Source: an uncultured virus (IMG/VR IMGVR_UViG_3300023097_000002) (lineage: Duplodnaviria; Heunggongvirae; Uroviricota; Caudoviricetes). Taken from it: a stretch of 20,000 nt of DNA. Positions 1,426 through 19,573 of the stretch are shown here, piece by piece (the first letter of the stretch is position 1; each line of letters begins with the position of its first letter). The notes under the pieces are model-generated. The model was not told the DNA's origin and made no database searches. It saw only the letters and a list, made by a program, of their open reading frames with translations. The position numbers and the translations under genes are program-made. The stretch lies in IMG/VR virus record IMGVR_UViG_3300023097_000002, positions 52,270 to 72,269 of that record, one strand, 5' to 3'.

Positions 1426-2241
1426 TCAGGCGGTGAACGGAACCGTCACGGCCTGGCTGCCGCCACGGGTGGCGTTGTCGTCGTCGGTGACCACGAGGGT
1501 GTAGTCGCCCGGCGCCGCGTAGGCGTGGGTGACCGGCGTGCCGTCGCCCGGGTTGGCCAGGACGCCGCTGCCGTCACCCGGATCCACGGAGACCGAACCC
1601 TCGCCCTTGTTGTCGACGGTGACGGTGACCGTCATGCGCGAGGCGTCGGTGGTGTCCTCGGTGACGGTGAGCGCCAGCGGGTCGGGCTGCGGGTCCTGCT
1701 CCGGCACGGCCGGACCGGCGTTGATCTGGACGGTCGCGGTACCGGCGGGCACCACGTCCACGGCCAGGGTCGCCTCCAGCGGCGGCTCGACATCGGTGAC
1801 GCGCACGGTCAGTACGGTGCTGCCGGGGGCGCCGGAGATGACCCAGCCCTTCTGGTCGTCGCCCGCGTCGAGCTGGACGGTCGCCACGGTCTCGTCGGCC
1901 ACCGACCACTCCACGGTGGCGTCGGTCGGGTAGCCCGCCGCGTCCCGGGTGTCGATCGCGACGCTGAACTTCTCGCCAGTGTTGATCTGCACGGTTTCTC
2001 CCTCTTCGGCAGTGTGCTTCGGCCAGGTCACGTCGGAGTCTTCGCCGACCGCTGGGCCGACTCTGAGGATGAGCCGGGTTACGCCAACGAGCCAGCCGTA
2101 GAAGCGGTTCGCCCTCTCCAGCATCACCTGCGTCGCCGCGTCGGTGTACTCACCCGGCTCTGGCAGGGTGGTGGCGAAGGTGCCCGCCGCTTCCCGGAGA
2201 GCTGCGATCCTGAGATCCCGCGTCTCGTCGGGTGTTGCCAC
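1426..2241 (-). CDS. Ig-like (Big_2-type) plus PKD-domain protein, likely virion/capsid decoration
   Basis: AAGGAG RBS before GTG at 2241 (MATPDETRDL). Ig motif VEWSVADETVATV...G..PGSTVLTV. PKD motif DPGDGS...THAYAAPGDYTLVVTDD. It lies just downstream of the major capsid gene. Confidence 0.8.
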   Translation of the reverse strand: MATPDETRDLRIAALREAAGTFATTLPEPGEYTDAATQVMLERANRFYGWLVGVTRLILRVGPAVGEDSDVTWPKHTAEEGETVQINTGEKFSVAIDTRDAAGYPTDATVEWSVADETVATVQLDAGDDQKGWVISGAPGSTVLTVRVTDVEPPLEATLAVDVVPAGTATVQINAGPAVPEQDPQPDPLALTVTEDTTDASRMTVTVTVDNKGEGSVSVDPGDGSGVLANPGDGTPVTHAYAAPGDYTLVVTDDDNATRGGSQAVTVPFTA

Positions 2242-2304
2242 GGTCACTCCTTGTCTCTCAGGAGGAGCGTACGGCATCTCGGACCAACGGCAGAAAAATG
2301 GCCC

Positions 2305-2347
2305 AGAAAATCCGGAAGCCCCCACCTTGCGGCGGGGGCTCTTCGGA
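2305..2347 (-). terminator. Rho-independent terminator
   Basis: Minus strand reads TCCGAAGAGCCCCCGCC-GCAA-GGTGGGGGCTTCCGGA-TTTTCT. The GNRA loop and a G-U pair fit only the minus orientation. Confidence 0.8.
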
Positions 2348-2434
2348 AAGGAGAAGAAACGTGGCCGTGACGGAGTCCTGGGGACTCGCACAAGGACGGT
2401 TCCTTCTTGGGCGGGGAGGGTGAGTCCTCGCCAC
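2305..2434 (-). ncRNA. Candidate ~130-nt small RNA
   Basis: Promoter-like TGGCGT-N18-TATCTT upstream. 5' GUGGC/GCCAC closing stem with internal GGACUC/GAGUCC and AAGGA/UCCUU stems. Ends in a GCAA-tetraloop terminator followed by UUUUCU. Confidence 0.55.
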
Positions 2435-2440
2435 ACCCAT

Positions 2441-2470
2441 AAGATACCCGAGGTGGGGGGCTTTACGCCA
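2441..2470 (-). promoter_or_regulatory. Putative primary-sigma (HrdB/SigA-type) promoter
   Basis: -35 TGGCGT (2470-2465), 18-nt spacer, -10 TATCTT (2446-2441). Confidence 0.5.
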
Positions 2471-2503
2471 GTTCCTGCTGGCCTCGTCGTGCAATTGCAC
2501 GCG

Positions 2504-2539
2504 AAGAGGGCCCCCCAGTCGCACATGGGGGGCCCTCTT
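2504..2539 (-). terminator. Perfect 14-bp hairpin downstream of the major capsid gene (terminator or mRNA stabiliser)
   Basis: AAGAGGGCCCCCCA-N8-TGGGGGGCCCTCTT. A second long imperfect hairpin lies at 2561-2607. Confidence 0.7.
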
Positions 2540-2616
2540 GCTGCCCGGCAGGAACGGGGACCGGGCAGGGGCGGTCGGGATCAATCCCGGGTCACCCGCC
2601 GCCCGGCTTCATCGGT

Positions 2617-3930
2617 TCAGGAACCCGAGGGACCCGAGACCGAACCGCCGCCGATGGAGGCCATGGACAGCGCCGCCTCTTCGCCCGTACCCAGCGAGAC
2701 CGCCACCGCCGAGGCGTCGATACCGGCAGCGCCGATGATCGAGCGGACCCGGTACTGGATGTCGTCGTGGGAGAACGAGCCCTCGAAGGCGTTGATCTCG
2801 CCACCGCCGAGCGCACGGCCCGTGTCGCCCATCACGCGGACCTCGGGGGTCTCGTGACCGCGCAGGAACGCGGTGACGATGGCCGGGCCGCGCTCCGTCT
2901 GGCCACCGGCCGGAACCAGGTACCAGGTCGAAGCGGCGTTCGCCGAGGTGTCGATGAGCGGCAGCCACGGGGACTCCACGACCGTGAAGCGGCCCGCGAC
3001 CGGCGAGGAGACGTTCTGGCGCATCTCCGTGCCGTCGGGAAGCTGGCGCACCCGCAGGTACGTGGTTCCCTGGGCGATCTCCTGCGCCGTGAGCGCGAGA
3101 GACGGCGGAACGAGGAGCACGAAGTTCTGCACCCGGACCTGGCGGCCGTTGACCTGCCGCATCCCGATGTAGTTGATCGCGTGCTCCAGCGCGTCGAGCG
3201 TCAGCGGCGGGTTGCCCGGCACGTAGTTGCCCGCCGGGGCCTGACCGCCGAAGTCCTCGGTCGTGTTGAAGAAGTCCGCGTTCGGGCCCGTTGCCGTGGC
3301 CAGAACACCGGTCGTCAGCACGTCCTCGGTGTCGCGCGCCCACCGTGCCATCTCGGTGGGGAGCTGCTGGAGAACCCGCAGCTCGTCGTTCATGAACGCT
3401 TCCCACGAGAAGGGGAAACGCGCACCGTACTTGTTGACGAAGTAGTCCGTGCCCTCGGTCGTGAGGTTGAAGGTCGGGTACTCCGTCAGCTCCGGGATGC
3501 GCGGCAGGGCCCGGACGTGGCGCTCGGCGCCGCCGTTGTAGTCGGTCGTCTGCGACTGACCGGCCACGGTGTCCCAGCGGACCATGCGGGCCGGACGGAA
3601 GTCCGGAACCGTGGTGCGCACCGAGAAGGTCGGCCACTGCTGCGGAAGATCCGCATACTGGCCGAGCATGCTCGCCTGCGAGATCGACTGGAACAGCAGC
3701 GGGAAGTCGCCACTGGAGACGGCCTCGCGCAGGCGGCCCATTGCGACCGGGGAGCCGAACTCCGCCTCACGCTTGAGGCGCAGGAACTCGACGGCCTTGT
3801 TGAGCTTCAGCAGGCGGGAGTCCGCCGACTCGCGGATGGCGACCCGACGCTTGTTGTGGGCCTCGGCGATGCGCTCGAACTCGGGGTTCGTGGTCGCCTT
3901 GATTCCGTCGAGGAAGGTGATCGCGCTCAT
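2617..3930 (-). CDS. Major capsid protein (HK97 fold, Mu gpT-like family)
   Basis: Motifs DFRP, LPRIPELTEYP, KYGARFPFSWEAFMNDEL, LLVPPSL and WYL..., typical of gpT-like capsids. RBS GAGGAGG. Position downstream of portal, protease and cement genes. Confidence 0.92.
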   Translation of the reverse strand: MSAITFLDGIKATTNPEFERIAEAHNKRRVAIRESADSRLLKLNKAVEFLRLKREAEFGSPVAMGRLREAVSSGDFPLLFQSISQASMLGQYADLPQQWPTFSVRTTVPDFRPARMVRWDTVAGQSQTTDYNGGAERHVRALPRIPELTEYPTFNLTTEGTDYFVNKYGARFPFSWEAFMNDELRVLQQLPTEMARWARDTEDVLTTGVLATATGPNADFFNTTEDFGGQAPAGNYVPGNPPLTLDALEHAINYIGMRQVNGRQVRVQNFVLLVPPSLALTAQEIAQGTTYLRVRQLPDGTEMRQNVSSPVAGRFTVVESPWLPLIDTSANAASTWYLVPAGGQTERGPAIVTAFLRGHETPEVRVMGDTGRALGGGEINAFEGSFSHDDIQYRVRSIIGAAGIDASAVAVSLGTGEEAALSMASIGGGSVSGPSGS

Positions 3931-12160: not shown

Positions 12161-12282
12161 CTTTTCAGCGACGGTCGCTTCACCCATGGCTTCACGGCCG
12201 TGCATGACGGCGCCTGGACGGTGCGCCACCAGGGGGCATGGTGCCTCCCGCAGATGCACCGCCAGCGCGTCATCGTCCACAT
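12157..12282 (-). CDS. 41-aa Trp/Arg-rich peptide
   Basis: TGATG overlap with the upstream gene and RBS AAGGAG. Sequence MWTMTRWRCICGRHHAPWWRTV... Confidence 0.5.
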   Translation of the reverse strand: MWTMTRWRCICGRHHAPWWRTVQAPSCTAVKPWVKRPSLKS

Positions 12283-12587
12283 CACAGCTCCTTCGAAGTG
12301 GCCCCGCTCACGAGCGGGGCCACCGGCTTTTCCGGCCAGTGCCAGGTGCCCGGAGTCGCTTCGCCATTCAGGGCCAGACCTTCGACGTCGAAGGCGACAT
12401 CCTTGGCGAACTGGAAGCCTTCGGGGTTCATGACGGTGAGGTGCACGATCCCGGCCGACAGGTCGACGACCTCGGTGATGGTGGCCGCCCGGCACTTCGA
12501 CGGGTACTGCTGCACTCCGTCCTGCGGCGCCGAGCCCAGCGACGTGTAGTGCACGGCGCGGCCGACGGAGGCGATGTCCTTGCTCAT
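12282..12587 (-). CDS. Conserved phage hypothetical protein (SVGR.VHY...CRAA.ITEV...GTWHWP family)
   Basis: Recognisable motif set. ATGA overlap with the methyltransferase stop. RBS AGGAG. Confidence 0.85.
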   Translation of the reverse strand: MSKDIASVGRAVHYTSLGSAPQDGVQQYPSKCRAATITEVVDLSAGIVHLTVMNPEGFQFAKDVAFDVEGLALNGEATPGTWHWPEKPVAPLVSGATSKEL

Positions 12588-18696: not shown

Positions 18697-18790
18697 TCTG
18701 CGGAAATACGCAGCAAGGTGCGAAGATGTATCCTCACGCCGCTGAACGGACAGATCCGGCAGGAAGAGCCGGGCGGAGAAGGAGAAAGAC

Positions 18791-19573
18791 GTGCAGAGTG
18801 TGCAGCCCCGGGTGTACCTCATCAGTGCCCCGGCACTGGACTACGACGAGATCGAGGAGTACCTGAACGAGGTCGGCGGCGGAAGCTGGCTCAGGCGGAT
18901 CGACGAGGACGACGACGCCCAGAACCTCGTCGAGTTCGCGGGCCGGTTCTGCTACCGGAGCTGGGAACCCGGGCTGAACCCGAACGTGACGCGCATCCGT
19001 GAGGATCAGGGCAAGTACCTGGAGAACATCCTCAGCTCCCGGCACGGCTCGGTCCTGGAGCACGCCCAGTTCACCTTCGCCCTGCACAACGTGAGCCGCG
19101 TCTTCACACACGAGCAGGTCCGCCACCGGGTCGGCACGGCGATCTCCCAGGAGTCGCTGCGGTTCGTGCGTCTGACCGATCTGCCGTTCTGGTTCCCGGA
19201 CTGGACGGACGAGGACGAAGAGCTGAAGAGCCGGGCCGTGAAGCTCCTGGAGCAGATGGAGGAGTTCCAGGGCTGGATGGCGGAGCGCTTCGGGCTCGAC
19301 AACCCGGGCGTGCCGTTCTCCGAGAAGAAGGCGAAGACGTCCTTCATGCGCCGCTTCGCCCCGGAAGGCGTGGCGACCGGCATGGTCTGGAGTGCGAACA
19401 TCCGCACCCTGCGGCACACCATCGAGTCCCGTACGGCGAAGGGCGCCGAGGAGGAAATCCGGATCATCTTCGACCGGATCGGCCGCATCATGCAGCAGGA
19501 GTGCCCGCTGCTCTTCGGTGACTACGAGGTCAGCGACGAGGGCGAGTGGATCCCGGGCTGGAGGAAGGTGTGA
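18791..19573 (+). CDS. thyX: Flavin-dependent thymidylate synthase
   Basis: AGRFCYRS, HGSVLEH, VSR.FTHEQVRHR...SQESLR (RHRx7SxR), N.R.LRH....R...A.EEIR. RBS AAGGAG. Confidence 0.96.
   Translation: MQSVQPRVYLISAPALDYDEIEEYLNEVGGGSWLRRIDEDDDAQNLVEFAGRFCYRSWEPGLNPNVTRIREDQGKYLENILSSRHGSVLEHAQFTFALHNVSRVFTHEQVRHRVGTAISQESLRFVRLTDLPFWFPDWTDEDEELKSRAVKLLEQMEEFQGWMAERFGLDNPGVPFSEKKAKTSFMRRFAPEGVATGMVWSANIRTLRHTIESRTAKGAEEEIRIIFDRIGRIMQQECPLLFGDYEVSDEGEWIPGWRKV

Follow-up and report, generated by a model that had tools for sequence, protein, structure and literature searches.

The window analyzed here consists of the final 20 kb of a 72-kb record of an uncultured virus of the Caudoviricetes (IMG/VR IMGVR_UViG_3300023097_000002). 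On its minus strand, in the gap behind the gene for the major capsid protein, lies a compact element composed of a promoter-like pair of blocks, a body of ~130 nucleotides (nt), and a GC hairpin with a U tail. From the comparisons described below, we consider it highly probable that this element is a real, conserved, non-coding transcription unit, which would produce a small RNA (sRNA). As judged by sequence comparison, the family to which the unit belongs is previously undescribed and is kept behind the major capsid gene by large Streptomyces siphophages, namely the group formed by Satis, Frankenweenie, and JustBecause, and by many uncultured relatives. The annotations of these three phages list nothing between the capsid gene and the next gene. 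The parts of the unit, followed by the two flanking genes, are these:

2305–2471, minus strand: the unit overall, with promoter-like pair, ~130-nt body, and GC hairpin with U tail.
2466–2471, minus strand: −35-like block CTGGCG (TTGGCA or TTGGCG in distant relatives), invariant in four of four phages, with a variable adjoining spacer.
2441–2446, minus strand: −10-like block TATCTT (TAnnnT), with a conserved GG just upstream; GGTATCTT is invariant in the four-phage alignment.
2305–2434, minus strand: predicted sRNA of ~130 nt, with a near-invariant body, matches to a covariance model, and no conserved open reading frame (ORF); both ends are predicted.
2411–2434, minus strand: 5′ hairpin H1 (GUGG-C-GAGG / CCUC-C-CCGC, loop ACUCAC), carrying the C-rich motif ACUCACCCUCCCC (2425–2413).
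2352–2407, minus strand: long irregular hairpin with an outer helix H2 (AGAAGG with UCUUCU, the 5′ half of the CU-rich tract) and an inner hairpin H3 of variable sequence.
2345–2363, minus strand: CU-rich tract CACGUUUCUUCUCCUUUCC, with the family-invariant core UUCUCCUU at 2355–2348 and an unpaired CCUU at 2351–2348.
2305–2347, minus strand: intrinsic terminator, with a UCCG/CGGA basal helix, an 11-bp GC stem, a GCAA loop, and then UUUUCU.
2617–3930, minus strand: major capsid protein gene, the upstream neighbor, annotated as such in Frankenweenie, Satis, and JustBecause.
1426–2241, minus strand: downstream gene, outside the unit, hypothetical in the annotations of relatives.

The promoter-like strings, the C-rich run, the linker, and the GCAA hairpin with its U tail had been pointed out in a preliminary description of this locus, and all are present. 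The promoter-like pair (2471–2441) reads TGGCGT-N18-TATCTT or, equally well, CTGGCG-N19-TATCTT, and TATCTT may fit the −10 consensus of Streptomyces HrdB. The pattern CTGGCG-N17-21-GGTATCTT occurs a single time in the window and in none of 200 shuffles. When the window is aligned with Frankenweenie, Satis, and JustBecause, both blocks are invariant and the spacer between them varies in sequence at constant length, an arrangement that is typical of a promoter. Read along the minus strand, this alignment passes from the conserved hairpins that follow the capsid gene through a patch of insertions and deletions (indels) to CTGGCG, the spacer, GGTATCTT, six variable bases, and ~135 near-invariant bases; similarity among the four phages stops just past the U tail. 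The sRNA is predicted to start at ~2434, where conservation sets in 7 nt past the −10-like block, and to have its 3′ end within the U tail. Beyond these four phages, a pair of the form NTG[GA][CT]N-N17-19-TAnnnT stands at a fitting distance in 20 of 23 distinct family sequences. The −10 variants of relatives at the same distance are TACATT, TACAGT, TACTGT, and TACCTT, and one distant locus (L041) has TTGAAG-N18-TACAGT. At the other end of the unit, the linker GUUUCUUCUCCUU leads into the hairpin GCCCCCGCC-GCAA-GGUGGGGGC and its U-rich tail. The 11-bp GC stem on a UCCG/CGGA base, followed by UUUUCU, has the makeup of an intrinsic terminator, and the stem is kept through compensatory changes.

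Matches to region 2200–2660 are found in seven cultured Streptomyces phages. Identity is 96.5% for Frankenweenie and 79.5% for Satis, Kradal, Quantum, and EhyElimayoE; for JustBecause and Kela it is 87.1%, with a match that begins at 2300. The unit is present in all seven records. A search with the capsid protein retrieved 39 viral loci (100–51% identity), of which three had truncated capsid matches. Of the other 36, 31 carry the unit behind the capsid gene, and the capsid identity of these loci reaches as low as 71%; the unit was called by a T[CT]TCCTT[TC] match with a GC hairpin and T run after it judged by eye. Among the five loci without it, two (L021 and L022) break off with the capsid gene, and three (L038, L039, and L043) have sequence there yet no unit. 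JustBecause and Kela lack the downstream gene, having converging genes instead, and retain the RNA unit, which is thus not a leader of the downstream gene. The C-rich motif ACUCACCCUCCCC is a conserved block in 13 sequences of subfamily A. The bodies of distant members cannot be aligned and the tract can, reading UYUUCUCCUUUCC in most and UUUCUCCUUC in L040 and L041.

The family appears to belong to phages and not to their hosts. A comparison of the unit by blastn with 401 Streptomyces genomes yielded a single real match (G011; E 3e-12); 19 further matches were short (E at least 1.9e-4), and the two of these that were inspected both lay within coding sequence. The exact 19-mer complement has 15 matches in genome contigs, a single one of them in Streptomyces, and this match corresponds to the RNA gene of a co-assembled phage. 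This copy of the unit adjoins a capsid gene of 89% identity, close to one end of a 185-kb scaffold (scaffold 14; 185,382 bp) of Streptomyces cucumeris NEAU-Y11. This scaffold is sized like the phage genomes and is probably a co-assembled or carried phage genome.

Relatives of the unit also occur in contigs from RNA libraries of soil and rhizosphere. Four of 19 runs were compared with 1700–3300 at 85% likeness. One (X8) has a 187-nt contig over 2299–2437, another (X4) a 189-nt contig over 2364–2552, and a third (X2) covers nearly all of 1706–3291; the fourth (X1), which is probably DNA, covers 2380–2528. The second of these contigs bears on an alternative in which the element has no function in trans and is instead the structured 3′ end of the capsid mRNA, a stabilizer and final terminator, with the "promoter" being some other conserved RNA or DNA feature. 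That contig runs from the capsid 3′ region into the unit, the hairpin right behind the capsid gene has no U tract and makes read-through plausible, and nearly all relatives have the unit after their capsid gene. Against this, a spacer that varies at fixed length between two conserved blocks is what a promoter would show, and in two loci (L023 and L033) inserted DNA intervenes, with ~1 kb between the capsid gene and the unit. Nor does a terminator by itself need an invariant 11-nt CU tract, which is maintained here from 100% to 71% capsid identity. We consider this alternative improbable.

The RNA is predicted to be highly structured. A 141-nt stretch folds at −67.3 kcal/mol, compared with −48.8 ± 4.0 kcal/mol for shuffles (z −4.7; none of the 200 shuffles was as stable). 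A covariance model (R1) was built from the 13 subfamily-A sequences and the minimum-energy fold of the window, and full-length members were found in 17 of 17 sources searched (E ≤ 1e-6). On the resulting alignment, which was fitted to the model itself, 92.2% of cells are paired, compared with 84.6% in shuffles (0 of 500 as high), and 24 of 46 pairs show compensatory change, compared with 7.1 in shuffles and 7–11 in slid controls. The supported fold consists of H1 with ACUCACCCUCCCC, the long hairpin masking the 5′ half of the tract, a free CCUU, and the terminator on its UCCG/CGGA base. Compensatory change is seen in 4 of 8 pairs in H1 (92% of cells paired), 4 of 6 in H2, 12 of 17 in H3, and 4 of 11 in the main stem of the terminator (96% of cells paired), with 0 of 4 in its basal helix. 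In L018, L019, and the copy from S. cucumeris, the inner hairpin has an entirely different sequence and still forms a hairpin.

The 5′ and internal stems drawn previously fare less well on the same alignment, with 86.8% of cells paired and compensatory change in 0 of 5 pairs (GUGGC/GCCAC) and 1 of 6 pairs (GGACUC/GAGUCC), although this comparison is tilted toward the fold to which the alignment was fitted; in terms of the modeled folds, those stems may be alternative conformers. The tract had also been described as exposed. In the supported fold, its 5′ half is paired with AGAAGG and its UCCG with CGGA, and CCUU alone is free. B-type members differ, in that single-sequence folds leave most of the tract unpaired (mean unpaired probability 0.67–0.89 in L028, L034, and L036). 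The tract is invariant while its pairing partner varies, which points to a constraint on the tract beyond pairing. G-U pairs are frequent (12 of 16 sequences at alignment columns 37/94 and 11 of 16 at 113/154). These would be A-C mismatches on the other strand, and the fold is therefore specific to the minus strand. This strand specificity argues against an element that acts as DNA, for instance by binding a protein or as a signal for replication or packaging, as does the maintenance of helices by compensatory changes and the coincidence of the conserved bounds with a promoter footprint and a terminator. Near-100% nucleotide conservation would fit any sequence-specific element, and we nevertheless find one acting as DNA very improbable.

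A second, weak match to the covariance model (27.9 bits, E 6e-5) lies on the plus strand at 12237–12333, behind a plus-strand gene, and contains CAGCUCCUUCGAAG, a GC hairpin, and CUUUUCC in that order. It could be another module of CU tract plus terminator, or a mere terminator with a reverse complement that resembles a gene start.

No known RNA family was found to account for the unit. Searching the whole window with Rfam 15 (4227 models) gave zero matches at the gathering threshold, and relaxing the search to E values up to 10 in 2150–2700 gave 13 weak matches, all ≤18 bits and far under threshold. The model for 6C RNA (RF01066) was not matched even at E up to 10, and ARAGORN found zero tRNA or tmRNA genes in the window.

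Nor does either strand appear to encode a protein. The plus strand carries GGAAAGGAGAAGAAAC-GTG, a Shine-Dalgarno (SD) sequence at ideal spacing that has the same look as real gene starts in these genomes, and the preliminary description had noted a 58-codon leaderless frame on the minus strand. The product of the unit could be a small protein, translated either from the latter or from a 20-codon plus-strand frame (GTG at 2361), which might then be a type I toxin with an antisense RNA. However, the start codon behind the plus-strand SD is present in 15 of 23 sequences and missing in 8, and the peptides that follow range from 6 to >55 amino acids and are mutually unrelated. In one locus (L005), the frame ends after 6 codons even though the 177-nt promoter-plus-RNA stretch is 98.3% identical, and JustBecause-type copies are frameshifted. 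On the minus strand, the 58-codon frame is shifted by loop indels in close relatives and has an early stop in L016, L035 has no minus-strand frame of at least 10 amino acids, and the minus-strand frames run through the terminator. Third codon positions in the four-phage alignment do not show the variation expected of a coding gene. With no ORF conserved, coding on either strand was rejected, and so was a type I toxin-antitoxin pair of small ORF and antisense RNA, as the opposite-strand ORF is not conserved and its start codon is absent in 8 of 23. A small protein is accordingly the least probable of the explanations considered, and extremely so. The earlier proposal of a separate non-coding unit on the minus strand is supported by its promoter footprint, its terminator, the lack of a conserved ORF, and compensatory pairs.

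The most conserved part of the unit is the CU-rich tract. The plus strand at 2345–2363 reads GGAAAGGAGAAGAAACGTG exactly, and the tract is, as previously recognized, the complement of a ribosome-binding site (RBS) plus start codon. The resemblance to RBSs extends above all to those of the phages' own genes. The sequence UUCUCCUU(UCC) is the exact complement of (C)GGAAAGGAGAAG, an overrepresented extended SD found at 6–28 phage gene starts per genome. The tract forms 11–12 Watson-Crick pairs with GGAAAGGAGAAG, including its AAG, and neither the trailing AAG nor the leading C of the motif is presumably pairable with the 3′ end of 16S rRNA. The sequence GGAAAGGAGAAR has 8, 9, and 12 copies in the complete relatives G003, G004, and G005, respectively, compared with 0–1 for the control and a position-independent expectation of ~0.2–0.5 copies per genome. 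In G004 and G005, every inspected copy is the RBS of a gene except for the RNA's own reverse complement. The genes concerned are often the first behind a TAnnnT box. With ≤1 mismatch, the 13-mer CGGAAAGGAGAAG occurs at 28 sites in G004, 29 in G005, 7 in Frankenweenie, 5 in G001, and 0 in G002 (controls, 0–1); in G005 and Frankenweenie, its sole copy away from gene starts is the RNA tract. The motif is also kept in five orthologous gene pairs whose proteins are only 28–52% identical.

In G004 and G005, several promoter-like regions ahead of motif-bearing first genes share TGGCCTAGG between −35 and −10, which could be an operator or a phage-specific promoter element.

Duplex energies were calculated for a 25-nt tract region against all SD-led starts (533 in the 72-kb record). 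The top target is a 93-amino acid gp53-like ORF at record position 47165, with 21 contiguous bp and −37.8 kcal/mol; the next is at −30.7 kcal/mol, and the rest are weaker. This ORF is a homologue of Frankenweenie gp53, for which the pairing has a z of −4.8 in Frankenweenie. The pairing is kept in five of five genomes having an orthologue (−34.6 to −37.8 kcal/mol), with protein identity as low as 54–61%; examples are Satis (54%, −36.2 kcal/mol), JustBecause (61%, −34.6 kcal/mol), and the L007 record (−37.8 kcal/mol). The gp55 homologue (record position 46511) has the exact 13-mer behind a TACTGT box. The start of thyX had been singled out earlier as a pairing partner. Its site AAGGAGAAAGACGTG is indeed found at 18779–18793 and pairs at −24.9 kcal/mol, which places it 21st of the 533 starts, and we therefore rejected it as a special target.

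Just upstream of the gp53-like RBS (record 47100–47165, and orthologues L171–L173), the preceding gene has its stop codon within a hairpin that, as judged by eye, has compensatory substitutions between phage groups.

The RNA and its candidate sites can also be compared between lineages. A-type RNAs read CCUUUCC-G and CUUCUCC, and B-type RNAs read CCUUUCC-A and CUUUCUCC. The base 5′ of the motif is C or T in a ratio of 167:18 in A-type genomes and 21:17 in the B-type genome G001 (p 1.6e-6), and T precedes GGA[AG]AGG at 17 of 50 sites in G001 as compared with 18 of 274 in three A-type genomes. Likewise, the ratio of AAG to AAAG after AGGRG is 133:4 in A-type genomes and 25:13 in G001 (p 4.7e-7). 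Flank positions out of reach of 16S rRNA thus appear to differ between genomes in step with the RNA, in what is a single lineage contrast, G001 being the one large B-type genome. Further lineages for this contrast did not come to light: contigs L025, L026, L028, L035, and L036 (11–29 kb) have almost no copies of the motif besides the RNA itself, none of the cultured phages was found with a B-type unit, a C-type query matched cultured phages only inside the capsid gene, and a repeated search with the capsid yielded no additional contigs.

These flank positions bear on a further alternative, in which the RNA mimics the 3′ tail of 16S rRNA and serves as a general SD sponge for host shut-off or as a decoy for factors directed at the anti-SD, such as MazF-type defense toxins. 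The conserved motifs ACUCACCCUCC and CUCCUUUC jointly resemble the 3′ end of Streptomyces 16S rRNA, GAUCACCUCCUUUCU. In a 2025 paper, a mycobacterial MazF is reported to remove the anti-SD sequence (PMC12274833). However, the tract is a closer fit to the phage motif GGAAAGGAGAAG than the 16S tail would be, as AAG is unpairable by the rRNA, and the flank positions past 16S reach shift with phage lineage. A general SD sponge would also strike the phage's own strong SDs. Such mimicry seems unlikely to us, at about the level of the capsid-mRNA alternative.

The interpretation that we judge the most likely, at even odds or slightly below, is that the RNA made from the unit acts in trans and masks the extended ribosome-binding motif at a set of phage genes. 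The unit would be transcribed by host RNA polymerase, and read-through from the capsid gene may add to this. The tract would pair with RBSs carrying the motif, first those of the gp53-like and gp55-like genes ~7–8 kb away. Such pairing would keep 30S subunits off and lower the expression of a set of non-structural phage genes. In the supported fold, the tract is largely masked by an internal SD-like strand, and pairing would therefore begin at the free CCUU junction and go on by strand displacement. Host mRNAs with a strong SD would possibly be hit as well.

A number of observations weigh against masking of phage RBSs in trans or against the transcription unit on which it depends. A generic sigma-70 scan (TTGACA/TATAAT) of 1800–3000 called zero promoters, and the support for the promoter comes from conservation of its blocks and not from a consensus score; the sole terminator called by this simple scan, a small hairpin at 2316–2302, overlaps the main terminator. 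The RNA-library contigs give no ends, strand, or level, and that of X4 runs from the capsid 3′ region into the unit. The fitting of the alignment to the model bears on all structure counts, and in subfamily A the supported fold leaves only ~4 nt of the tract (CCUU) free. Any anti-SD-like tract matches strong SD sequences, and the target ranking is thus weak evidence. The gp53-like gene was not found in G001, G002, G003, G004, G005, or G011 and so cannot be the target of the whole family. Genes with the motif are few in the window's own lineage (6 in Frankenweenie). The flank covariation amounts to one contrast between lineages. In a weight-matrix test on all SD-led starts, the best fit was not in every genome its own RNA: the A-type complement came top in four of five genomes, including G001, and second in G002, whose own C type came lowest.

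Several features around the unit and elsewhere in these genomes are recorded here in their own right. The product of the downstream gene (1426–2241) has a weak match to the PKD domain (25 bits against a cut-off of 27), which fits its earlier labeling as an Ig gene. The 3′ untranslated region of the capsid gene (2488–2620, minus strand) contains a long hairpin and a 16-bp GC hairpin that lacks a U tract (−79 kcal/mol, z −5.0), and these hairpins are highly conserved among relatives. Distant relatives keep a hairpin after the capsid gene, with CGUUCC or CCAUUCC in its loop as judged by eye. In Frankenweenie (90673–92620; L057), a gene for a Ro-like RNA-binding protein (gp147) adjoins an unusually long, 91-nt "tRNA-Pro(tgg)", which could be a Y-RNA-like partner of gp147. 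A "tRNA-Sec(tca)" is annotated in the same phage at 70465–70537.

The proposed mode of action has precedents. RsaE/RoxS of Firmicutes and 6C/B11 of Actinobacteria (Rfam RF01066) are sRNAs with C-rich or CU-rich seeds that mask SD regions. Like the phage unit, they are small, terminator-bounded RNAs whose conserved pyrimidine-rich motifs are complementary to G/A-rich RBSs, and by analogy a block of initiation without a requirement for Hfq is likely shared. In contrast to these RNAs, the phage unit has no sequence or structure match in Rfam and was not found as a host gene in the 401 Streptomyces genomes, and its main motif is a linear, largely masked tract next to the terminator instead of a C-rich apical loop. 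6C RNA has two hairpins, whereas the phage unit has one 5′ hairpin bearing the C-rich motif, which lies partly inside the stem. Phages also have RNAs that mask RBSs, namely c4 RNA of P1 and P7, sar of P22, and DicF of prophage Qin. These resemble the present unit in being small phage RNAs that cover an RBS and block translation (as predicted here). They differ in acting on one or a few defined genes within the temperate immunity or prophage modules of enterobacteria, whereas the present unit sits in the head module of large Streptomyces phages and is complementary to a motif that many genes share. The RegB endoribonuclease of T4 recognizes the SD sequence GGAG and shuts off a class of phage mRNAs. 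The logic is comparable, except that RegB is a protein nuclease, and here the recognizing agent would be an RNA, with no cleavage implied. Our literature search found nothing on small RNAs encoded by Streptomyces phages. The c4 RNA is mentioned in a 2025 review on sRNAs derived from phages, the text of which contains neither "Streptomyces" nor "Mycobacteri" (PMC12197685).

A closer parallel may exist in Cluster K mycobacteriophages, which have a start-associated sequence (SAS). This asymmetric motif includes AGGAG, exceeds 16S pairing, sits 3–9 nt ahead of the start codons of some non-structural genes, and is kept by orthologues (PMC3203893; PMC11373665). Pope et al. (2011) described a single reverse copy off gene starts and left the reader of the SAS unnamed, as "either RNA or protein" (PMC3203893). 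Its role was still given as unknown in the available portion of a 2024 paper (PMC11373665), and the terms "antisense", "sRNA", "opposite", and "reverse" are absent from that of a 2025 paper on Cluster K (PMC12699233). The Streptomyces phages likewise have an overrepresented asymmetric start motif that contains AGGAG and extends beyond 16S pairing, placed 3–9 nt ahead of the starts of some non-structural genes and kept by orthologues, with one reverse copy off gene starts. Their motif is SAS-like in its abundance in G004 and G005 (28–29 sites) and is weaker in the window's lineage (7 in Frankenweenie). The differences are that the motif here is CGGAAAGGAGAAG and that of the SAS is GGGATAGGAGCCC, that host genus and phage group are not the same, and that the reverse copy in the Streptomyces phages lies inside an RNA unit running from promoter to terminator, whereas the accessible sections of the Cluster K papers name no RNA partner for the SAS.

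In the mycobacteriophage Adephagia, the SAS stands at gene starts in 16 forward copies, and a single reverse copy (58682–58694) is located within the unannotated 432-bp gap between gp92 and gp93. The reverse SAS falls exactly in the 10-nt loop of a ~20-bp hairpin (z −7.0), and the region around it (58560–58760) is conserved in 179 phage records. In seven sampled Cluster K phages, this region lies behind an invariant TAGACT box, and its first hairpin has compensatory changes. The loop is the exact complement of the SAS in four of the seven (Adephagia, Anaya, Validus, and Mdavu). In Amohnition and Unicorn it agrees, as judged by eye, at ~8 of 10 positions, and the loop of ShedlockHolmes is unrelated. 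The forward SAS was unchanged in the five genomes searched (13–16 copies each) while the loop varies, and there is thus no covariation of loop and SAS. The Cluster K parallel is a lead and not a result. A general scheme, in which actinobacteriophages have an "anti-start-site" riboregulator, one RNA that reads the start-associated sequence of up to ~28 genes and exerts global control over the timing of translation, and in which the same logic may explain the reader of the SAS in Cluster K, is more doubtful than masking in the Streptomyces phages by itself, and we regard it as rather unlikely.

The regulatory RNAs of phages infecting Actinobacteria are almost unknown. The family described here is conserved from 100% to 71% capsid identity, is easily testable in the cultured phages Satis, JustBecause, and Frankenweenie, and points to a defined regulon in the genes with the extended motif CGGAAAGGAGAAG. 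If the pairing is real, these phages would time their own translation through one RNA aimed at a shared ribosome-binding motif, and the 15-year-old puzzle of the mycobacteriophage SAS would become directly testable.

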